Sequence record: OR906198.1
DNA: 64,000 nucleotides
From: Escherichia phage BP32
Direction: 5' to 3' (one strand)
Positions 3,434-63,962 of this stretch are shown piece by piece. The notes under the pieces are model-generated. The model saw nothing but the letters and a program-made list of their open reading frames with translations. It did no database searches and was not told the DNA's origin. The translations under genes and the position numbers were made by a program. Position 1 is the first letter of the stretch; the number at the start of each line of letters is the position of its first letter.

Positions 3434-4984
3434 TTAGTAATGAATTTTAATAATATAGTTTAATGATATATTCCATGGTCTAGTTTCATAACCAATTAAT
3501 CCTTCACGATTAAGTGTACCAAGGGCATCTCTCGGTCCACCCAATTCAAATCCATCATTAGTGAAGTATGAAGCATTATCCCAGTCGGAATATTTTCTAG
3601 TTCCAAGATATCCTTGATAAACGGACGCGCCAAATGGAGCTTCATGTCTTTGGTATTCTCCCCAACCACCAGCGTGTTTATGGTATGACATTTGTTGTGC
3701 CTGAACACCACCAACATGCATTCCGTCACATCCTACGCCAAGTCTATCCTTCCCATAACCATCTTGTCCACGTTGATTTAAAATATGACCGCCCGTGCCA
3801 GCTCCTCTAACAAAAAGACCTCTCATATCAGGAATCCCTGGATTATTCCAATCACCACCAAATCTTGCTCCAACCGTGTTTCTATAATCAGGATATTGAT
3901 CTCCTGACACGGTTCCGCCGTGGCACATAACCCAACCCGGAGGTGCTGAATCACCTGCAAACATCATAATAGTTCCAACTGGAACTCTTTCGGACGCATA
4001 TCTTTCAGTGGCAACAGGTTGATCGCCATTTTTCCACATTCCGCCGCGCGACCAAATTCCGTTTGCTGTAAGATGGTCTAAATTTAAAGAACCATTAATA
4101 GTTTGTCCACCACGAGTATTAATTACATCTGCGTTCCATGCTAATGCACCAGAGCTATCACCTTCAGGGGCAATACCGGCTTGCGTCGTTAATTTAACTA
4201 CTCCGCGCATAGAACCAGTAGCTCCTCGACCATTTAGTGTTTCACCTGTTACTGCAACATCTCCCAAATTACTGTTAATTTCTGATTGTGTTCCTAAACG
4301 TATAACACCCTTATATTCTTGTGTTGCAACAGAATTCATAAAGGTATACGGAGAAATTGCATATCCTTCGCGGAGAGTTCCTTGACGAGTTTGCGCAACA
4401 GTAGATAATTGAACTACACCTCTCACAGATTCTGATGCAGTATCTTCGGAAGGAGCTATTTGTGAAATTAATTTTATTGCAAGTTTTTGTGTTTTTAATG
4501 GAGTCATTGCCGTAGTATCATCAACTCCAGCTAAAGCTGCAGGTGTAGATGATATTTTAATAACCCCGTTTGATGACTCAGACGAATATCTATTTTGGAA
4601 CACATCGTCAGTGTGGTATTTCAGTTTTTGCGGCGTTATTGATGAATTATTATCTGAACCTTCTAATGTTTCTTCATTTGTTGAATAACGCGTTAAACCA
4701 TATTTAGTTTCAGTAGCATTTGGATACAATAATCTTGTTGCTAATGTAGCTGGTGTAACGATTTTGGAATTATTAGTTCCATCTAAAACCTCTTGCTCTG
4801 ACGCAATCATTGCTATTCCTTTAACTTCCATAGTTGCATCAGGAATACCATTTACGCCGATATTACTTATTTTTGATAATGCAGACTGCACTGTCGTGAC
4901 AGTGTCAGGAAAATTCGATCCTGCAGGATCGAATTTAACATATTTTGATTCATTTGATACGTGCTGATATGTATTGTTACTCAT
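3434..4984 (-). CDS. 12: gp12 short tail fiber
   Basis: 516-aa ORF between wac and 11, T4 gene order; ATGA overlap with gene 11 stop. Confidence 0.9.
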
Positions 4985-23015: not shown

Positions 23016-23102
23016 GCGAGAATGGTCAAATTGGTAAAGGCACAGCACTTAAAATGCTGCGGAATGATTTCCTTGTGGGTTCGAGTCCCACTTCTCGCAC
23101 CA
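23016..23102 (+). tRNA. tRNA-Leu (anticodon UAA)
   Basis: 7-bp acceptor GCGAGAA/TTCTCGC, anticodon loop cuUAAaa, long variable arm, T-arm GGTTCGAGTCC, encoded CCA. Confidence 0.85.
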
Positions 23103-23107
23103 AATTT

Positions 23108-23181
<74 letters not shown>

Positions 23182-23191
23182 ATTTAATTTA

Positions 23192-23265
23192 CTCCGTGTA
23201 GCTCAGTTTGGTAGAGCGCCTGATTTGGGATCAGGAGGTCCAAGGTTCAAATCCTTGTATGGAGA
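23192..23265 (+). tRNA. tRNA-Pro (anticodon UGG), no encoded CCA
   Basis: anticodon loop uuUGGga, T-arm AAGGTTCAAATCCTT; 3' end lacks CCA; 2-nt spacer to tRNA-Ser. Confidence 0.8.
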
Positions 23266-23267
23266 CT

Positions 23268-23354
23268 GGAGGCGTGGCAGAGTGGTTTAATGCACCGGTC
23301 TTGAAAACCGGCAGTCGCTCCGGCGACTCATAGGTTCAAATCCTATCGCCTCCG
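23268..23354 (+). tRNA. tRNA-Ser (anticodon UGA), no encoded CCA
   Basis: acceptor GGAGGCG/CGCCTCC, anticodon loop cuUGAaa, long variable arm, no CCA. Confidence 0.8.
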
Positions 23355-23361
23355 TAATTTC

Positions 23362-23437
23362 GCTGATTTAGCTCAGTAGGTAGAGCAACTCACTTGTAAT
23401 GAGAAGGTCGGCGGTTCGATTCCGTCAATCAGCACCA
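23362..23437 (+). tRNA. tRNA-Thr (anticodon UGU)
   Basis: acceptor GCTGATT/AATCAGC, anticodon loop cuUGUaa, T-arm GGTTCGATTCC, encoded CCA. Confidence 0.85.
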
Positions 23438-23438
23438 A

Positions 23439-23515
23439 GGCCCTGTAGCTCAATGGTTAGCAGCAGTCCCCTCATAAGGGAAAGGTTACCAGTTCAAATC
23501 TGGTCTGGGTCACCA
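23439..23515 (+). tRNA. tRNA-Ile (anticodon CAU; Met alternative)
   Basis: anticodon loop cuCAUaa, T-arm CAGTTCAAATCTG, encoded CCA; one U-U mismatch in acceptor stem. Confidence 0.7.
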
Positions 23516-23524
23516 AATTAATTA

Positions 23525-23611
23525 GGGGAGTTATCCCGTAGAGGTAGCGGTGTGGACTGTAAATCCATTGTCATTGCGACTCGGGTGGTTCGACTCCACC
23601 ACTCCCCACCA
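23525..23611 (+). tRNA. tRNA-Tyr (anticodon GUA)
   Basis: acceptor GGGGAGT/ACTCCCC, anticodon loop ACTGTAAAT as in bacterial tRNA-Tyr, long variable arm, encoded CCA. Confidence 0.8.
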
Positions 23612-23657
23612 ATTTATGACTCGTCGTGAGACGCTCAGTTCTTTATTAGGGACTGAT

Positions 23658-24323
23658 ATGCATTTTTATCTTTATAAAATAACAAATAAAATTAATAATA
23701 AAATTTATATTGGTGTGCATTCTACCGAAAATTTAGATGATGGATATATGGGTTCTGGTAAATTATTAAAAAGAGCCCAAGATAAGTATGGTATAGAAAA
23801 TTTTTCTAAAGAAATATTAGAGTATTTTGATGATAAAGAATCTATGCTTGAAGCCGAGAAAAATATTGTCACAGAAGAGTTTTTAAATAGACCAGATGTG
23901 TATAATTTAAAACTTGGCGGTGAAGGTGGATGGGACCATATAAATATTCCTGGGATGCTAAACCAGAAGAAAGATGCTAGCTTAAAAGGAGCTAAATCGT
24001 TTAAATCACGTTTTGAAAATGATATTTTACTTCAAGAAAAATATCGTAAAATTGGTTCAAATGTATTTAAACGTTTGTGGTCAACTCCTGAATACAAGGA
24101 AAAATTTTTAAATAATAGCAGATTTTTAAATAAGCATCATACTCCTGAAACTATTAATAAAATGAAAGAAATTCACGCTAAAAATAATCATCAGAAAGGA
24201 GAAAAGAATTCCCAATTTGGTATGATGTGGATTCATTCATTAGATGAAAAAGTTTCTAAACGTATTAAGAAAACTGACCCAATTCCAGAAGGATGGTTTA
24301 AAGGTCGAAAAATGAAATTTTAA
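23658..24323 (+). CDS. segB: GIY-YIG homing endonuclease SegB
   Basis: 221 aa from ATG 23658 (ORF track start 23550 would overlap tRNA-Tyr); GIY-YIG motif YLYKITNKINNKIYIGVHS; embedded in tRNA cluster. Confidence 0.8.
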   Translation: MHFYLYKITNKINNKIYIGVHSTENLDDGYMGSGKLLKRAQDKYGIENFSKEILEYFDDKESMLEAEKNIVTEEFLNRPDVYNLKLGGEGGWDHINIPGMLNQKKDASLKGAKSFKSRFENDILLQEKYRKIGSNVFKRLWSTPEYKEKFLNNSRFLNKHHTPETINKMKEIHAKNNHQKGEKNSQFGMMWIHSLDEKVSKRIKKTDPIPEGWFKGRKMKF

Positions 24324-24326
24324 TTA

Positions 24327-24402
24327 CGGGGCATAGCTCAGAAGGAAGAGCAAGGACCTTCTAAGTCCTAGGTCGTAGGTTCGATCCCTACTGCCTCGAC
24401 CA
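24327..24402 (+). tRNA. tRNA-Arg (anticodon UCU)
   Basis: acceptor CGGGGCA/TGCCTCG, anticodon loop cuUCUaa, T-arm GTAGGTTCGATCCCTAC, encoded CCA. Confidence 0.85.
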
Positions 24403-24418
24403 ATTAAGTGAGGAAAAT

Positions 24419-24769
24419 ATGAAAGGTAATGTTTATTTAGTAGTTCATGATTTAACATTCTATTTTAATCACAATGATACTGTTATTTCTGAACGTGTAA
24501 TTAATTTACTTTATCAGCATGCAGATTATGTTTATGTCGAAAACGAATACGGTCATTGGCAATTTCTCAAAAATCGTTCATTTGGTTTAGATGGTTACGA
24601 ATATTTTGAACGTAAAGACCTTTTAGATAAAATTCCGTTATCTACACAATATCAAAATCATAAGTCTTTATATAAATGCCGTCCAATTCGAAATGCTGAA
24701 TCTGCGTATGAAGCAATTGATTTATGGCGTAAACGCCGTGAACAGATTGATGCATTAAAAGAATATTAA
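24419..24769 (+). CDS. hypothetical protein
   Basis: 116-aa ORF with GAGGAAAA RBS directly after tRNA-Arg. Confidence 0.6.
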   Translation: MKGNVYLVVHDLTFYFNHNDTVISERVINLLYQHADYVYVENEYGHWQFLKNRSFGLDGYEYFERKDLLDKIPLSTQYQNHKSLYKCRPIRNAESAYEAIDLWRKRREQIDALKEY

Positions 24770-25107
24770 GAAGCCGGGTCGCTACCGGTAAGTCGTCGGA
24801 CTGATGTTCCCTGGGTAAGGACTGGCATTAACAAATCTTTACGATCTGTTAATGTCCCCTTACATCACAGCAGAAACGGCGCACCGAATTATCGATTCGA
24901 GGAAATATCTTTGCCGTAAGCCGAGTAGCGTTTTTGACGGAACGTTCGGATATGGTCGAGATATGGCCTTTTAAAATATTGAGTAGCGTCAACTGCTTAA
25001 TAACCGGGTTCGAATCCCGGCGTTTCGTACAAACACTTGCCTTAGCAGGTGGAACCCCGACAAGGTTGCCGCAAGGCTTAGCCCCAGCCGAAAGGTTGGG
25101 GCTTTTT
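24770..25107 (+). ncRNA. structured non-coding region; candidate stable small RNA(s) (T4 rnaC/rnaD-like position)
   Basis: about 340 nt, GC-richer than surroundings, no credible ORF; tRNA-like T-arm CCGGGTTCGAATCCCGG at 25004-25020; ends in GNRA-loop terminator. Confidence 0.35.
25081..25107 (+). terminator. intrinsic terminator
   Basis: GCCCCAGCC-GAAA-GGTTGGGGC stem-loop followed by TTTTT. Confidence 0.6.
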
Positions 25108-29070: not shown

Positions 29071-29601
<531 letters not shown>

Positions 29602-29606
29602 AGTGG

Positions 29607-29635
29607 TTTACTTTCTCCTAGAATTGTGATAGTAT
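29607..29635 (+). promoter_or_regulatory. T4-type early promoter
   Basis: -35 TTTACT, 17-bp spacer, -10 TAGTAT, upstream of denV. Confidence 0.6.
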
Positions 29636-29660
29636 ATTCACAGTTACTTGGAGGGATAAA

Positions 29661-30077
29661 ATGACTCGTATTAATTTGACTTTAGTATCTGAACTTGCTG
29701 ATCAACATTTAATCGCAGAATACCGTGAATTGCCACGCGTTTTTGGTATAGTTCGTAAACACGTGGCAAATGGTAAGCGGGTTAAAGATTTTAAAATATC
29801 TTCCGAGTTTATTTTAGGTTCTGGTCATGTTACGTTCTTTTACGACAAGTTAGAATTTTTGCGAAAGCGTCAATCAGACATTATAATGGAATGCTTAAAA
29901 CGTGGGTTTAGTATAAAAGATACTGAAGTTCCTGACATCAGCGATATTCCAGCAGAATGGAAAAATGATTATAATCCATGCAAATCAGCTATTAAATTGA
30001 GTCAACAACGACTCGATAAAAAAATTTTAATGAAGCCACACTGGTACAAGTATTACGGCAAAAATATTTACATTTAA
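29661..30077 (+). CDS. denV: endonuclease V (pyrimidine dimer glycosylase)
   Basis: 138 aa, N-terminus [29 protein letters not shown] as T4 DenV. Confidence 0.9.
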
Positions 30078-30086
30078 AGGAAACAT

Positions 30087-30560
30087 ATGAAAACATATCA
30101 AGAATTTATCACTGAAGCAGCTATTAATTCTCAAATTATTGCTGAATCTTTTACTGATCTTTTGAAATTTAAAAAAGGTCAAAAAATCACTGCTGTATTG
30201 GATGATGGTACAGAAGTTGAGATGGATGTACAGGGATATAATTATGCAGTAGATGGAAAACTGTATAATAAATCCCATGCTAAATTTGATTCATTTGACG
30301 ACTTTGTTAATACAGTTGAAGATGAAAAAACTCGTAGATCAATTTCAACTGGTGATGCTAAGGTTCTTATGGCACACGGTCATGAACGTATTCGCGCTAA
30401 ACAGAATAAAATGGGTGAAGATAATTTCGCATTAGTTGGTTATCAATCTGGTAAACAAACTTATGGCTATCAGCGTACTGCTACCATGTATAATAAAAAT
30501 GGTAAAATCGCTTTCGTGAATAGTAAAGGTTCTATTCAGTACGTCAAATCATTCAAATAA
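30087..30560 (+). CDS. internal-protein-like ORF with capsid-targeting leader
   Basis: 157 aa; N-terminus MKTYQEFITEA matches the T4 internal-protein targeting consensus with I-x-E cleavage site; body does not match ipII/ipIII as I recall them. Confidence 0.65.
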   Translation: MKTYQEFITEAAINSQIIAESFTDLLKFKKGQKITAVLDDGTEVEMDVQGYNYAVDGKLYNKSHAKFDSFDDFVNTVEDEKTRRSISTGDAKVLMAHGHERIRAKQNKMGEDNFALVGYQSGKQTYGYQRTATMYNKNGKIAFVNSKGSIQYVKSFK

Positions 30561-30713
30561 GCAAATAAGAAATATGGGAACAAGCTGGACCTCATGATTC
30601 TATGAGGGATTCCCGCCAACCTGTAATAAGGTCGAGCCCAAGTGCGGTAATGGGTAAATACAGAAATGGACAATTCACGCGCCATGGAATGGCCCAAATT
30701 TAGAGAGAATAAA

Positions 30714-31256
30714 ATGAGAACATTTTTAACTGGTCCTTATCTATCCCTGATGAATGCTTTTACACACCATTCTGATGCTAGAGTAGAAGAAATTTGTAAT
30801 AGTGGATTTTATGTACCTGATTCGCCACATTTATTTAAAGAATACTGCACACTTCGACTAGATGGTGGACGTCAATCCGGTAAATCAACTGCAGTAACTA
30901 ATTTTGCCGCTAATTGGTTGTATGACGGTGGAACAGTTATTGTTCTTTCTAATACTTCAGCTTACGCTAAAATTTCTGCGGGCCACATTAAAAAAGAATT
31001 TTCACGCTATTCTAATGATGATATTCGATTCCGTTTATTTACTGATTCTGTCCGTAGTTTTGTTGGTAATAGAGGTAGCAAGTTCAGAGGTTTATCGCTT
31101 TCGCGGATTTTGTATATAATCGATGAGCCTGTTAAATCTCCTGATATGGATAAAATTTACGATATTCATATTGAAACTGTGCACCACTGTTGCAATAGTA
31201 AATGCTGCATTGGTGGTATTACTCGTCCACAGTTTTTCATAATCGGAATGCAATGA
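30714..31256 (+). CDS. small P-loop NTPase
   Basis: Walker A GGRQSGKST and Walker B ILYIIDEP; ORF track start 30666, ATG 30714 has AGAGAGAAT RBS (180 aa). Confidence 0.6.
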   Translation: MRTFLTGPYLSLMNAFTHHSDARVEEICNSGFYVPDSPHLFKEYCTLRLDGGRQSGKSTAVTNFAANWLYDGGTVIVLSNTSAYAKISAGHIKKEFSRYSNDDIRFRLFTDSVRSFVGNRGSKFRGLSLSRILYIIDEPVKSPDMDKIYDIHIETVHHCCNSKCCIGGITRPQFFIIGMQ

Positions 31257-31582
31257 TGACAGACACGCAACTTTTCGAATATCTTTATTTTTCGCCAAAA
31301 ACTATTAAAAATAAATTGGTGAATCATTTTGAAATTTTGGCAAATAACAACGTCTTGAGCGAATTTTATCCTAAGCAATACAAATTACAAAAAGGCGTAT
31401 TCAAAGGATGCAGAGTTTTGTGCACTGCTCCTAATGCAAGATTAATGAATAAAATTCCATATTTTACCATGGAATTTATTGATGGACCTTTTAAAGGACT
31501 AATCACCCAAAGTTTAATGGCATATGATTCTGAGCCATTTTTAATTAAAGAGCAATCTTGGATAAATTTATTTTCTAATTGA
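31253..31582 (+). CDS. hypothetical protein
   Basis: 109 aa from ATG 31253, overlapping previous stop. Confidence 0.55.
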
Positions 31583-31590
31583 GAGGTTAT

Positions 31591-31953
31591 ATGAAAGCAT
31601 ATCAAATTCTTGAAGGCACGCATAAAGGTACTATTTATTTTGAAGACGGTATTCAAGCACGAATTATTGTCTCTAAAACTTTTAAAGAGGACTCTTTTGT
31701 AGACCCAGAAATTTTCTATGGTTTGCATGCCCGTGAAATTGAAATTGAAACACAGCCTACAGTTAAAATTGAGGGTGGTCAACACCTGAACGTAAACGTT
31801 CTGCGTCGTGAAACTCTGGAAGATGCAGTTAAGCATCCGGAAAAATATCCGCAGCTGACCATCCGTGTATCCGGTTATGCAGTTCGCTTTAACTCTCTGA
31901 CTCCGGAACAGCAGCGCGACGTTATCGCTCGTACCTTTACTGAGAGTCTATAA
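31591..31953 (+). CDS. autonomous glycyl radical cofactor (GrcA/YfiD-like)
   Basis: C-terminal glycyl-radical motif [27 protein letters not shown]; start at ATG 31591 (120 aa); I recall a T4 GrcA homolog (Y06I). Confidence 0.8.
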
Positions 31954-32174
31954 TGGCAAAGATAATTATTGAAGGTTCTAAAGATGTGCTAAATGCTTTC
32001 GCCGAGTGGTTTAGTAATTCAGGCGAACAGCAATTTAATGAAGCGTGGAACATGGGTGATATTAGTGGAATTTATCCTACAACAGAAATTTCTGTTCAGG
32101 GATATGGCATTCATGAACCTATTCGTTTAGTTGAATATGATTTATGTACTGGTGAGGAAGTCAAATATGATTGA
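31953..32174 (+). CDS. hypothetical protein
   Basis: 73-aa ORF, TAATG-coupled to upstream gene. Confidence 0.5.
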   Translation: MAKIIIEGSKDVLNAFAEWFSNSGEQQFNEAWNMGDISGIYPTTEISVQGYGIHEPIRLVEYDLCTGEEVKYD

Positions 32175-32433
32175 AGACATTAAGGGTTATAAGCCACATA
32201 CTGAAGAGAAAATCGGTAAAGTGAATGCTATCAAAGACGCTGAAGTTCGTTTAGGACTTATCTTTGATGCTTTATATGATGAATTCTGGGAAGCACTAGA
32301 TAATTGTGAAGACTGCGAACTCACAAAGAATTATGCTGAAAGCCTCGATCAGTTAACTATTGCTAAAACGAAACTCAAAGAAGCCAGTATGTGGGCTTGT
32401 CGTGCTGTGTTCCAACCAGAGGAAAAATATTAA
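32167..32433 (+). CDS. hypothetical protein
   Basis: 88 aa from ATG 32167 behind GAGGAAG RBS. Confidence 0.5.
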
Positions 32434-32711
32434 TGGCTCAATTAAGCGCAGGGTTTGGTTATGAGTATTATACTGCCCCTCGTCGTGTATCTGTCGCTCC
32501 TAAGAAAATTCAAAGTCTTGATGACTTCCAAGAAGTAGTCCGTAAAGCTTTCCAGGACTACGCACGTTATCTTAAAGAAGATTCACAGGACTGTCTCGAA
32601 GAAGATGAAATTGCTTACTATGAGCAGCGTCTTGAACAGCTTAAAAACCTACATGAGGTTCGTGCAGAAGTTTCAAAGTCTATGAATAAATTGATTAGAT
32701 TTAAAGAATAA
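32433..32711 (+). CDS. hypothetical acidic protein
   Basis: 92 aa from ATG 32433 behind AGAGGAAAA RBS, TAATG coupling. Confidence 0.55.
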
Positions 32712-32714
32712 CTG

Positions 32715-32743
32715 TTTACTTTTCCTCTTGACTGTGGTATAAT
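32715..32743 (+). promoter_or_regulatory. T4-type early promoter
   Basis: -35 TTTACT, 17-bp spacer, -10 TATAAT with TGG extension; upstream of regB. Confidence 0.65.
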
Positions 32744-32770
32744 TTTTCTATCAGTTAAGAGGAGAATAAC

Positions 32771-33232
32771 ATGACTATCAACACAGAAGTTTTTATCCGT
32801 CGAAATAAGCTCCGTCGTCACTTTGAGTCGGAGTTTCGTCAAATTAACAATGAGATTCGTGAGGCATCAAAAGCAGCAGGGGTCTCATCGTTTCATCTAA
32901 AATATTCTCAGCATCTTCTTGATCGTGCAATTCAACGGGAGATTGATGAGACATATGTTTTTGAATTATTCCATAAAATAAAAGACCATGTTTTAGAAGT
33001 TAATGAATTTCTGAGTATGCCTCCGCGTCCTGACATTGATGAGGATTTTATTGATGGGGTTGAATATCGTCCTGGACGTTTAGAAATCACAGATGGAAAT
33101 CTTTGGCTTGGATTTACAGTTTGTAAACCTAATGAGAAGTTCAAAGACCCGTCACTTCAGTGCAGGATGGCAATCATCAACAGTCGTCGTTTACCAGGAA
33201 AGGCTTCTAAAGCAGTAATTAAAACTCAATGA
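32771..33232 (+). CDS. regB: RegB endoribonuclease
   Basis: 153-aa ORF at T4 regB length behind GGAGAAT RBS. Confidence 0.8.
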   Translation: MTINTEVFIRRNKLRRHFESEFRQINNEIREASKAAGVSSFHLKYSQHLLDRAIQREIDETYVFELFHKIKDHVLEVNEFLSMPPRPDIDEDFIDGVEYRPGRLEITDGNLWLGFTVCKPNEKFKDPSLQCRMAIINSRRLPGKASKAVIKTQ

Positions 33233-33239
33233 GGTAAGC

Positions 33240-33785
33240 ATGAGAAAAGCACTACTCGCTGGTCTATTGGCCATTTCTATGATGGCACATAGCTCCGAGC
33301 ATACTTTCAGTAATGTCCAACTCGATAACATGCGTTACGCGTATCAATTCGGGGAACAATTTTCTAAGGATGGAAAATATAAAACACACAAAAATATCCA
33401 CAAGAGCGGATTGGGTCATATAATGGCTGCTATTTTATGGCAAGAAAGCTCTGCCGGAGTTAATTTAAAATCTAAACCAAAGCATCATGCCTATGGAATG
33501 TTCCAAAATTATTTGCCTACTATGCGAGCAAGAGTTAAGGAACTTGGTTATAATATGACCGATGCTGAAATAAAAAGAATGTTGAATAAACGGTCCAATT
33601 CAGCTTCCTGGGCGTACATTGAACTTTCTTATTGGTTAAATATACATAAGGGCGATATAAGAAAGGCGATATCCTCTTATAATTCGGGATGGAATGTTAA
33701 AGCAGGTTCTAAATATGCTTCTGAAGTCCTAGAAAAGGCTAATTACCTTAAAAATAATAAACTTTTGGAAATAGTAAATGACTAA
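33240..33785 (+). CDS. secreted lytic transglycosylase (SLT domain)
   Basis: signal peptide MRKALLAGLLAISMMAHS; SLT motifs WQESS, YGMFQ, SYNSGW. Confidence 0.7.
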   Translation: MRKALLAGLLAISMMAHSSEHTFSNVQLDNMRYAYQFGEQFSKDGKYKTHKNIHKSGLGHIMAAILWQESSAGVNLKSKPKHHAYGMFQNYLPTMRARVKELGYNMTDAEIKRMLNKRSNSASWAYIELSYWLNIHKGDIRKAISSYNSGWNVKAGSKYASEVLEKANYLKNNKLLEIVND

Positions 33786-49080: not shown

Positions 49081-49554
49081 ATGTTATTGACTGGCAAATT
49101 ATACAAAGAAGAAAAACAAAAATTTTATAATGCGCAAAATGGTAAATGCTTAATTTGCCAACGAGAACTAAATCCTGATGTTCAAGCTAATCACCTCGAC
49201 CATGACCATGAATTAAATGGACCAAAAGCAGGAAAGGTACGTGGATTGCTCTGTAATCTCTGCAATGCTGCGGAAGGTCAAATGAAGCATAAATTTAATC
49301 GTTCTGGCTTAAAGGGACAAGGTGTTGATTATCTTGAATGGTTAGAAAATTTACTTACTTATTTAAAATCCGATTACACCCAAAATAATATTCACCCTAA
49401 CTTCGTTGGAGATAAATCAAAGGAATTTTCTCGTTTAGGAAAAGAGGAAATGATGGCTGAGATGCTTCAAAGAGGATTTGAATATAATGAATCTGACACT
49501 AAAACACAATTAATAGCTTCATTTAAGAAGCAGCTTAGAAAGAGTTTAAAATGA
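49081..49554 (+). CDS. 49: endonuclease VII (Holliday junction resolvase)
   Basis: 157 aa, MLLTGKLYKEEKQKFYNAQNGKCLICQREL..., matches T4 gp49. Confidence 0.9.
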   Translation: MLLTGKLYKEEKQKFYNAQNGKCLICQRELNPDVQANHLDHDHELNGPKAGKVRGLLCNLCNAAEGQMKHKFNRSGLKGQGVDYLEWLENLLTYLKSDYTQNNIHPNFVGDKSKEFSRLGKEEMMAEMLQRGFEYNESDTKTQLIASFKKQLRKSLK

Positions 49555-51368
49555 CAATTGAAAAAGAAATTGAAGGATTAATTCATAAAACTAATAAAGA
49601 CCTTTTGAACGAGAATGCTAATAAAGATTCTCGTGTTTTTCCAACTCAACGGGACCTTATGGCTGGTATTGTGTCTAAACACATTGCCAAAAATATGGTC
49701 CCGTCTTTTATTATGAAAGCGCATGAAAGCGGAATTATTCATTTCCATGATATTGATTATTCCCCTGCTCTTCCATTTACTAATTGCTGTTTAGTAGATT
49801 TAAAAGGAATGCTTGAGAACGGATTTAAGCTCGGTAATGCACAGATTGAAACTCCTAAATCAATCGGCGTTGCTACTGCAATTATGGCGCAAATTACTGC
49901 ACAGGTTGCTTCCCATCAATATGGTGGAACGACTTTTGCGAATGTAGACAAAGTACTTTCTCCTTATGTTAAACGCACCTATGCAAAACATATTGAAGAT
50001 GCAGAAAAATGGCAAATCGCTGATGCGCTGAATTACGCCCAGTCTAAAACAGAAAAAGACGTATACGATGCATTCCAAGCTTATGAATATGAAGTAAATA
50101 CTCTCTTTAGTTCAAACGGACAAACGCCCTTTGTAACAATTACATTTGGCACGGGAACTGACTGGACTGAACGAATGATTCAGAAAGCAATTCTGAAAAA
50201 TCGTATCAAAGGTCTTGGTCGTGATGGGATAACTCCTATTTTCCCTAAGCTTGTTATGTTCGTTGAAGAGGGTGTTAATCTTTATAAAGACGATCCGAAC
50301 TATGATATTAAGCAGCTTGCTCTAGAGTGTGCAAGTAAAAGAATGTATCCTGACATCATTTCGGCTAAGAACAATAAAGCTATCACAGGTTCATCTATTC
50401 CTGTTTCTCCAATGGGTTGCCGCAGTTTCTTAAGTGTATGGAAAGATTCGACTGGTAATGAAATTCTTGATGGACGTAATAATCTTGGCGTTGTAACACT
50501 GAATCTTCCTCGTATTGCGTTAGATTCTTATATTGGAACACAGTTCAATGAACAGAAATTTGCCGAATTGTTCAATGAACGAATGGATTTATGTTTTGAA
50601 GCTTTGATGTGTAGAATCAGTTCCTTAAAAGGAGTTAAAGCTACTGTTGCTCCTATTCTTTACCAAGAAGGTGCATTCGGGGTTCGTCTTAAACCTGATG
50701 ACGATATAATTGAGTTATTTAAAAACGGTAGAAGTTCAGTGTCCCTAGGATACATTGGTATTCACGAATTGAATATTCTTGTCGGTCGTGATATTGGACA
50801 AGAAATTTTAACTAAAATGAATACTCATCTTAAACAATGGACTGAAAGAACCGGATTTGCTTTTAGTTTATATTCTACTCCTGCTGAAAACCTGTGCTAT
50901 CGCTTCTGTAAACTTGATACCGAAAAATATGGAAGTGTAAAAGATGTTACCGATAAAGGCTGGTACACTAACAGTTTCCACGTTTCAGTAGAAGAAAATA
51001 TTACTCCGTTTGAAAAGATTTCTCGCGAAGCACCGTATCATTTCATTGCGACAGGTGGTCACATTTCTTATGTTGAACTTCCTGATATGAAAAATAACCT
51101 AAAAGGTCTTGAGGCTGTATGGGATTATGCTGCACAACATTTAGATTATTTTGGTGTTAATATGCCAGTAGATAAATGTTTTACATGCGGAAGTACCCAT
51201 GAAATGACTCCTACTGAAAACGGATTTGTTTGTTCTATTTGTGGAGAAACTGATCCTAAAAAGATGAACACAATAAGAAGAACATGTGGCTATTTGGGAA
51301 ATCCGAATGAACGCGGATTTAATCTTGGCAAAAATAAAGAAATCATGCATAGGGTTAAACACCAATGA
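49551..51368 (+). CDS. nrdD: anaerobic ribonucleoside-triphosphate reductase NrdD
   Basis: 605 aa uninterrupted; C-terminal zinc ribbon and glycyl-radical motif RRTCGYLG. Confidence 0.9.
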   Translation: MTIEKEIEGLIHKTNKDLLNENANKDSRVFPTQRDLMAGIVSKHIAKNMVPSFIMKAHESGIIHFHDIDYSPALPFTNCCLVDLKGMLENGFKLGNAQIETPKSIGVATAIMAQITAQVASHQYGGTTFANVDKVLSPYVKRTYAKHIEDAEKWQIADALNYAQSKTEKDVYDAFQAYEYEVNTLFSSNGQTPFVTITFGTGTDWTERMIQKAILKNRIKGLGRDGITPIFPKLVMFVEEGVNLYKDDPNYDIKQLALECASKRMYPDIISAKNNKAITGSSIPVSPMGCRSFLSVWKDSTGNEILDGRNNLGVVTLNLPRIALDSYIGTQFNEQKFAELFNERMDLCFEALMCRISSLKGVKATVAPILYQEGAFGVRLKPDDDIIELFKNGRSSVSLGYIGIHELNILVGRDIGQEILTKMNTHLKQWTERTGFAFSLYSTPAENLCYRFCKLDTEKYGSVKDVTDKGWYTNSFHVSVEENITPFEKISREAPYHFIATGGHISYVELPDMKNNLKGLEAVWDYAAQHLDYFGVNMPVDKCFTCGSTHEMTPTENGFVCSICGETDPKKMNTIRRTCGYLGNPNERGFNLGKNKEIMHRVKHQ

Positions 51369-63398: not shown

Positions 63399-63962
63399 AT
63401 GAGCTTATTTGAAGATGATATTCAATTAAACGAGCATCAAGTTGCTTGGTATTCAAAAGATTGGACAGCTGTCCAATCTGCTGCTGATTCTTTTAAAGAA
63501 AAAGTTGAAAATGAATTTTTTGAAATAATTGGAGCTATCAATAATAAAATTAAATGCTCTATTGCTCAAAAAGATTATTCAAAATACATGGTTGAGAATG
63601 CATTATCACAATTTCCGGAGTGCATGCCAGCTGTATATGCTATGAATTTAATTGGATCAGGTTTAAGCGATGAAGCCCATTTTAATTATCTGATGGCTGC
63701 TGTTCCTCGGGGTAAAAGATATGGTAAATGGGCAAAACTGGTTGAAGATTCTACCGAAGTATTGATTATTAAGTTACTTGCTAAGCGGTATCAAGTTAAT
63801 ACAAATGATGCAATTAACTATAAATCAATTCTTACTAAAAATGGAAAACTTCCTTTAGTATTAAAAGAACTAAAAGGTTTAGTCACGGATGATTTTTTGA
63901 AAGAAGTGACTAAGAATGTAAAAGAACAGAAACAACTCAAAAAACTAGCATTGGAATGGTAA
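63399..63962 (+). CDS. 62: gp62 clamp loader small subunit
   Basis: 187-aa ORF after gene 44, T4 length and position. Confidence 0.9.

Follow-up and report, generated by a model that had tools for sequence, protein, structure and literature searches.

We analysed a 64,000-nt stretch of Escherichia phage BP32 (sequence record OR906198.1; hereafter the window), and in particular vs.6, a gene whose 120-residue product ends in a glycyl-radical domain. The gene is very probably the ortholog of T4 vs.6 (Y06I), encoding an autonomous cofactor for the pyruvate formate-lyase (PFL) of the host, with a 3' half that would have been overwritten from the E. coli gene grcA. The identity and function of vs.6 are already known, the T4 ortholog having been characterised in 2001; the host-tracking mosaic described here is a modest addition to that knowledge.

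BP32 Vs.6 is a GrcA-like protein

The open reading frame (ORF) of vs.6 has an ATG start, 120 codons and a TAA stop (Table 1). As in GrcA-type proteins, the product is small, stands alone and carries a glycyl-radical domain with no catalytic barrel. PF01228 (Gly_radical) is its sole Pfam domain, with residues 60-101 aligned to the last 42 profile positions (E 2.2e-18). In the PDB, residues 22-120 match E. coli GrcA/YfiD (6OWR; E 4.6e-42), and residues 697-759 of pyruvate formate-lyase are matched as well (E 4.8e-26). The protein belongs to phrog_1209, the group of T4 Vs.6/Y06I, aligning to positions 1-120 of 121 (E 5.4e-63). The initial annotation, made by reading the sequence, had described a 120-residue protein with a C-terminal RVSGYAVRF motif, too short for an enzyme, and had taken it for a GrcA/YfiD-like stand-alone cofactor homologous to T4 Y06I. 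The alignments bear out this description.

T4 Vs.6 (NP_049730, T4 63557-63919; UniProt P13316, the accession given in the infection-omics tables of the PMC9697503 supplement) has the same length, the same neighbours and the same E. coli-like 3' block as its BP32 counterpart. The two are identical at 118 of 120 residues (98.3%) and at 96.7% of nucleotides. The differing residues are Thr54 of BP32, which is Pro in T4, and Arg73, which is His in T4 and Arg, as in BP32, in E. coli GrcA.

E. coli GrcA (P68066; TIGR04365, spare_glycyl) is likewise a stand-alone protein, of ~14 kDa. Its C-terminal domain is identical to that of BP32 Vs.6 at 59 of 59 residues, and the two genes share 170 identical nucleotides. 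The N-terminal halves are homologous, in an alignment that starts at residue 22, with 17 of 60 aligned residues identical (~28%) and with the motifs Q5, ARxIVxK, ED and RE in common. BP32 Vs.6 differs from GrcA in being seven residues shorter and in being encoded by a lytic phage, the transcript of the T4 ortholog being classed as early. In E. coli PflB (PDB 1H16, 2PFL), 49 of the 63 residues of the C-terminal domain (697-759), including the whole loop, are identical to BP32 Vs.6. This domain is the part that Vs.6 is thought to replace; the match covers only these residues of the 759-residue PFL, and BP32 Vs.6 lacks the catalytic barrel.

The PFL-type loop RVSGYAVRF, Gly95 included, does not vary among the 19 phage and host homologs aligned. 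Variability of this glycine had been named as a reason to abandon the annotation, and the alignment shows none. Gly95 aligns with GrcA Gly102, and its position in the RVSGYAV loop equates it with PFL Gly734, which has been named as the site of O2 cleavage (PMC8683613).

The 1.5 kb around vs.6 matches 806 phage records, mostly Escherichia and Shigella Tequatrovirus, with up to 97.9% identity, and the window is that of a T4-type phage. Phage HY01 is 100% identical to BP32 in the 5' half of vs.6 and in NrdD. Homologs of vs.6 are found in 1591 phage records from T4-like, T5-like, Aeromonas and Vibrio phage groups, and both RefSeq T4 and hundreds of phage records label the gene as GrcA.

Proposed mechanism of PFL repair

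E. coli YfiD and T4 Y06I restore O2-cleaved PFL after radical installation by the PFL-activating enzyme (PFL-AE), and no other spare-part protein has been validated (Andorfer et al. 2021, PMC8683613). The C-terminal ~60 residues of YfiD duplicate the glycyl-radical domain of PFL, and its disordered N-terminal 60 residues aid the binding of cleaved PFL and radical installation (PMC8683613). A 2026 review agrees on PFL repair by YfiD and Y06I, and states that spare parts are known for formate lyases only and that the PFL activase acts on an RVSGYAV peptide and not on the peptide RVCGYLG of ribonucleotide reductase (RNR) (PMC13450708). For Y06I activation and PFL rescue, the source cited is Wagner et al. 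2001 (PMID 11444864). This is the T4 experiment to which the initial annotation had referred; we rely on it as summarised in PMC8683613 and PMC13450708.

vs.6 is one of a small number of ORFs shared by every T4-like genome compared, 6/6 (Nolan 2006, PMC1524935). In an infection time course, T4 vs.6 (T4p117) falls into the early RNA class and the middle protein class (PMC9697503 supplement), indicating that the T4 ortholog is expressed; lack of expression had been the other proposed ground for doubt.

By analogy with these systems, the best-supported and most likely mechanism is one in which host PFL-AE installs a radical on Gly95 and Vs.6 replaces the severed C-terminus of PflB. Host PflA (PFL-AE), a radical S-adenosylmethionine enzyme, would abstract a hydrogen atom from Gly95 in the RVSGYAV loop, and the C-terminal ~60 residues of Vs.6 would dock into PflB cut by O2 at Gly734. 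The repaired PflB would again convert pyruvate and coenzyme A (CoA) to acetyl-CoA and formate.

T4-type phages shut off host gene expression. Therefore, the infected cell would be unable to replenish PflB, a subunit of 85 kDa, or host GrcA. An early phage copy may keep fermentative acetyl-CoA and ATP, as well as formate, flowing in a micro-oxic infection. This physiological role is one that we infer, as are the formate link and the recombination mechanism considered below.

Four points weigh against this assignment. First, with the NCBIfam GrcA equivalog model TIGR04365 (profile positions 25-126 of 126), BP32 Vs.6 obtains 154.6 bits, below the 170-bit cutoff. The shortfall is due to the diverged N-terminal half, and we therefore place the protein in a GrcA-like subfamily of phages, for which functional equivalence has been published, and do not treat it as a strict equivalog by that threshold. 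Second, the in vitro data on activation and PFL rescue, as summarised in the papers cited above, belong to the 98%-identical T4 Y06I and not to the BP32 protein, to which they would extend by similarity. Third, the N-terminal half, which in YfiD is the PFL-binding region, has diverged, so that kinetics or partner could differ. Fourth, we know of no vs.6 mutant with an in vivo phenotype.

The strong divergence of the N-terminal half (17/60), which in YfiD serves binding and radical installation, together with the score below the GrcA equivalog cutoff, would also suit a decoy or modulator that binds host PFL-AE or PflB and diverts or blocks fermentation or radical chemistry. However, T4 Y06I is reported, in the accounts given by PMC8683613 and PMC13450708, to reconstitute PFL activity and not to inhibit it, the C-domain is 100% identical to that of the functional GrcA of the host, and the N-terminal motifs Q5, ARxIVxK, ED and RE are retained. 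A decoy is thus very unlikely, and a PFL spare part remains our preferred reading.

In a T4 infection series, the intensity of host GRCA_ECOLI rises about twofold (from ~4.3e8 to 8-9e8) and a neighbouring host protein stays flat (PMC9697503 supplementary file 5). Because the C-terminal 59 residues are identical, Vs.6 peptides may pass as GrcA; that such shared peptides explain the rise is speculation.

vs.6 is a mosaic of phage-type and E. coli grcA-like sequence

vs.6 is a mosaic gene, composed of a phage-type 5' half and an E. coli grcA-like 3' half. The 3' tract contains 170 nt with 0 mismatches to E. coli grcA, coding for GGQHLNVNV through RTFT plus two bases of the following Glu codon; 5' of the tract, only loose DNA similarity is found. 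In a BLASTN search of 5426 complete E. coli genomes, positions 31769-31953 of the window match grcA at 96.8-97.8% in every genome. The DNA of the tract is grcA-derived (97-98%), other E. coli matches being much weaker (75% identity for the tdcE sampled).

Base composition changes along the gene in the same way. GC is ~0.31-0.34 in the 5' half and ~0.50 in the 3' tract, the latter value lying in the top 0.5% of 170-nt windows (z = 3.3). GC at third codon positions (GC3) is 0.21 in codons 1-61 and 0.42 in codons 62-120, compared with 0.43-0.44 in E. coli grcA and 0.23-0.28 in the neighbouring phage genes.

The highest GC peak of the window, and several others, are tRNA genes, and two more peaks lie in a glycine-rich ORF (3434-4984), which we take to be a short tail fibre gene. 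Nine tRNA calls fall at 23016-25030, the last of which, tRNA-Lys(ttt) at 24937-25030, is unusually long (94 nt).

Mismatches between phage and host copies were counted at positions 31774-31941, which make up the first 168 nt of the C-terminal block (Table 2). The BP32 block is nearer to E. coli grcA than that of T4, with 0 as against 2 mismatches. Distances between the grcA genes of different hosts over the same block are 14-36. Outside the block, the orthologs are less alike: of the 183 nt in the 5' half of BP32 vs.6, 21 differ in the Mosigvirus ortholog and 19 in the Carettavirus ortholog. In 90-nt sliding windows against Mosigvirus, identity is 98-100% inside the block and 41-90% elsewhere in the 1.6-kb region where it is alignable.

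Table 2 Mismatches of phage C-terminal blocks to host grcA genes
Phage	E. coli	Citrobacter	K. pneumoniae	Salmonella
BP32	0	14	22	28
T4	2	14	22	30
Carettavirus phiE142	1	13	21	29
Mosigvirus G2469	3	15	23	31

Host grcA sequences were also drawn from PLSDB records, e.g. CP125156.1 and LR134122.1. The K. aerogenes gene in LR134122.1 (NCTC10006) is frameshifted, probably through an assembly error, and its ungapped counts of 80-100 mismatches were discarded in favour of the BLAST identity of 90.8%. PLSDB holds multi-megabase chromosomes or fragments labelled as plasmids, e.g. a K. pneumoniae 'plasmid unnamed2' of 5.37 Mb.

The nucleotide match might be thought to follow from the protein that it encodes. 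Enterobacter phage CYPEBC003 encodes an identical C-domain at 83% nucleotide identity, indicating that protein constraint alone is not the cause. Copies in Karamvirus, Slopekvirus, Pseudotevenvirus, Krischvirus, T5-like and Aeromonas phages have 24-58 differences from every host.

These data also bear on a scenario in which the sequence was captured once, long ago, and then held constant by extreme purifying selection at the nucleotide level, be it for codon usage, RNA structure or a regulatory RNA. The encoded domain is indeed almost invariant in protein across phages and hosts, and grcA is only moderately divergent between the host species compared. However, an identical or near-identical C-domain is found in other phages with 24-58 differences per 168 nt, the identical protein at 83% mentioned above among them. 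In addition, the tract is 0-3 mismatches from E. coli although E. coli is at least 14 from any other genus, Klebsiella phages match Klebsiella instead (see below), and in GC3 the tract matches the host gene, at double the value of the genes native to the phage. Ancient capture is therefore hardly likely, and recent exchange with the host is favoured. The tract has no Rfam match and its fold has z = -1.1; on these results, an RNA-level constraint was rejected as an explanation of the nucleotide identity.

That half of vs.6 is essentially host sequence could also suggest a functionless piece of host DNA carried along into the phage. This is at odds with the intact frame, which has its own Shine-Dalgarno sequence and translational coupling to its neighbours, with a 5' half that is phage-specific and conserved, and with the occurrence of homologs in all of the phage groups listed above. 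Moreover, the T4 gene has RNA and protein classes in infection tables (PMC9697503), and the T4 protein is reported, in the summary given by PMC8683613, to be active in vitro. A mere fragment is vanishingly improbable and is refuted for practical purposes.

Probable recurrent conversion from host grcA

A discontinuity is present in the phage gene, and the E. coli block is normal in its distance to other enteric grcA genes and equals the remainder of grcA in GC3; we therefore place the direction of transfer as from host to phage. From the sequence comparison, vs.6 appears to be an old phage homolog of grcA, the 3' half of which would have been overwritten recently by gene conversion from E. coli chromosomal grcA. 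The conserved glycyl-radical domain may leave enough nucleotide similarity between phage and host for recombination, and the ends of the tract would mark the loss of that similarity, 5' at the edge of the domain and 3' shortly before the stop codon.

A second case is found in Klebsiella-infecting Jiaodavirus (Mineola, Shinkou). The 5' half of the gene is related to that of BP32, with 49-52 differences per 183 nt. The 3' block, with a GC of 0.56, is 7-9 mismatches away from K. pneumoniae grcA but 23-24 away from that of E. coli. A BLAST search of all phages with K. pneumoniae grcA gave 77 records at 95-99% identity and 61 at 90-95%; among the matches listed, 15 of 15 records are Klebsiella phages of ~167 kb. 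The Klebsiella tract spans grcA query positions 199-374 of 384 and nt 181-353 of 363 of the phage gene, near the limits seen in E. coli phages. The Escherichia and Klebsiella events must be separate.

We consider it probable, if short of firmly so, that recurrent, homology-limited gene conversion from host to phage keeps the 3' half of vs.6 in concerted evolution with grcA, and that it has occurred at least twice in T-even-type phages. The sources in this scheme would be Escherichia for Tequatrovirus, Mosigvirus and Carettavirus (0-3 differences per 168 nt) and Klebsiella for Jiaodavirus (7-9). Two observations count against it in its general form. No copy with at least 95% identity to Salmonella grcA was found among phages, and therefore the exchange is episodic and host tracking is not universal. 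Furthermore, one E. coli acquisition that spread among co-infecting T-even phages fits the Escherichia data as well as several independent events. We found no mention of the host-tracking mosaic in the searchable literature, which does not extend to key older papers, and priority is uncertain.

phiE142 and PBM-1 (121-kb records) were considered as an unrelated family with an E. coli-like block; this was rejected, both being Straboviridae and not independent families.

In Morganella phage vB_Mm5 (locus L009, 137-1187), the vs.6 homolog is annotated as a longer coding sequence (137-790), directly followed by an HNH endonuclease gene. It is possible that this endonuclease drives local gene conversion in that phage.

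Relation to the anaerobic ribonucleotide reductase

The window also encodes NrdD, a class III (anaerobic) RNR, and its activase NrdG, at the place where the initial annotation had reported them (Table 1). That annotation had proposed two targets for Vs.6, host PFL and phage NrdD. The first agrees with the T4 Y06I literature, as summarised in the papers cited above. Direct rescue of NrdD is not supported by the evidence from loop type, BLASTP, PDB matches and activase specificity.

In this second proposal, Vs.6 would be a spare domain for phage NrdD that is activated by NrdG and replaces an O2-cleaved NrdD C-terminus. NrdD and NrdG are encoded in the same 64,000-nt window, the title of Young et al. 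1996 places the glycyl radical of NrdD at position 580, and all glycyl-radical enzymes are described as open to the same oxidative damage (PMC8683613). In Aeromonas phage Ah1 (NC_055733.1, locus L102, 2367-5947), moreover, the vs.6 homolog directly follows nrdG, overlapping its end, within a cluster of the order nrdA-nrdB-x-nrdD-nrdG-vs.6-nrdC-nrdH.

The loop sequences argue against direct rescue. Vs.6 has the PFL-type RVSGYAV and no RNR-type loop (RVCGYLG-like), whereas BP32 NrdD has RRTCGYLG, and the Ah1 homolog also carries the PFL-type RVSGYAVRF. Activase specificity is reported to depend on the loop sequence (PMC13450708). A BLASTP comparison of Vs.6 with NrdD gave E = 6.1 with the glycine loops unaligned, which is no detectable similarity to the NrdD C-terminus, and the 33 PDB matches of Vs.6 include PFL and PFL-like enzymes but no NrdD chain. 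The C-terminal cysteine pairs of NrdD (CFTC...CSIC), taken as a Zn-binding motif, are absent from Vs.6, and the spare parts known are those of formate lyases only (PMC13450708). On sequence grounds, direct rescue of NrdD is disfavoured, and a spare domain activated by NrdG is most unlikely.

A link between vs.6 and NrdD is most likely indirect, through formate. Formate serves as the reductant of some class III reductases, and PFL-derived formate is perhaps consumed in this way (PMC13450708). PFL would make the formate that phage NrdD consumes, and Vs.6, by repairing PFL, would contribute to substrate supply. Because formate is a class III RNR reductant and the loop evidence opposes NrdD repair, this link is the most economical. 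Of the genomic signs that vs.6 may be functionally tied to anaerobic nucleotide reduction, the Ah1 locus is the strongest, and NrdD homologs occur in both the T4-like and the T5-like groups that carry vs.6 homologs. It must be set against the formate link that it draws on a single instance of synteny and on biochemistry of a general kind.

In some relatives, a homing endonuclease divides nrdD into two pieces; BP32 nrdD has no such insertion. A 157-residue ORF (49081-49554) precedes nrdD, where related records annotate endonuclease VII.

Implications

vs.6 is a good example of a phage-borne repair part for a damage-prone host enzyme. It raises the in vivo questions of whether vs.6 sustains fermentation and whether it supplies formate to the phage anaerobic RNR in the micro-oxic gut. 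A conceptual likeness is offered by the psbA gene of cyanophages, which encodes D1. It is a phage copy of a damage-prone host part, and patches of it have reportedly been exchanged with the host by intragenic recombination (Lindell 2004; Zeidner 2005; Sullivan 2006). In both cases, the phage would replace a host part that is destroyed as it operates normally, by photodamage there and by O2 cleavage for Vs.6. Protein, pathway and phage group are different, and D1 is a whole subunit whereas the part supplied by Vs.6 is a ~60-residue domain that needs a host activase.

T4 degrades host DNA. If the mosaic arose by conversion as proposed, T4-type phages would repeatedly copy short stretches of host chromosome in nature, and vs.6 would naturally mark homologous recombination of the host chromosome with phages that are strictly lytic. 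The exchange might then be an adaptive matching of the spare part to the host, as for cyanophage psbA. In proteomics, transcriptomics and metagenomic binning, the 3' half of vs.6 can mislead, its peptides and reads being indistinguishable from those of host GrcA.

Gene neighbourhood

The stop codon of vs.7 (31580-31582) lies upstream of vs.6, and the TAA of vs.6 shares base 31953 with the ATG of vs.5. Shine-Dalgarno sequence, upstream stop codon and stop/start overlap abut so closely that vs.6 is placed in a tightly packed array of genes on the same strand. tblastn of T4 proteins onto the window gave the order vs.8-vs.7-vs.6-vs.5-vs.4-vs.3-regB, in order and strand as in T4. A promoter and terminator scan of 29500-33500 gave nothing informative directly 5' of vs.6, and sigma-70-like sites in that interval do not exceed those in shuffled sequences (16 vs 14.2 +/- 3.0).

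Table 1 Features of vs.6 and of the nrd genes in the BP32 window
Feature	Position	Strand	Basis
Shine-Dalgarno GAGG, 4 nt 5' of the vs.6 ATG	31583..31586	+	read from sequence
vs.6 / Y06I ortholog, 120-aa GrcA-like autonomous glycyl-radical cofactor (stop included)	31591..31953	+	ORF, sequence, homology
Phage-type 5' half, codons 1-61	31591..31773	+	AT-rich; distant homology to GrcA N-terminal region
Host-derived tract, 170 nt, glycyl-radical domain	31774..31943	+	alignment to E. coli grcA, no mismatch
Gly95 codon GGT, predicted radical site	31873..31875	+	sequence; invariant column; alignment to 6OWR and PFL 697-759
Last three sense codons and stop of vs.6	31944..31953	+	three silent changes relative to E. 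coli grcA, with similarity ending at the stop
nrdD, class III (anaerobic) RNR, single 605-aa ORF, Gly loop RRTCGYLG	49551..51368	+	ORF; tblastn against phages
nrdG, NrdD activase, 156 aa	51365..51835	+	ORF; annotations of matches

Several neighbours differ from their T4 annotations. The vs.8 homolog lies in two frames, T4 residues 1-32 corresponding to 30602-30697 and residues 26-219 to 30666-31253; the gene may be frameshifted, a pseudogene or organised differently in BP32. The vs.5 homolog (31953-32174) has 73 residues, in line with 73-74 in phiE142, G2469 and PBM-1; the T4 annotation has 58, and the C-terminal part of T4 Vs.5 matches another frame of the window. T4 itself may carry a frameshifted vs.5 variant. 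The vs.4 homolog (32167-32430), two genes 3' of vs.6, is 97.7% identical to T4 Vs.4, and the anti-CBASS protein 2 (Acb2) annotated in the 1.5-kb vs.6 region of some related records is taken to be this gene. Between the denV homolog (29661-30071, 77% to T4) and vs.8 lies an ORF of 157 residues (30087-30560) starting with MKTYQEFI. It matches the internal virion protein family phrog_3155 over its full length (E 1e-101); T4 has no gene at this place, and the product is only 33% identical to T4 IPII.

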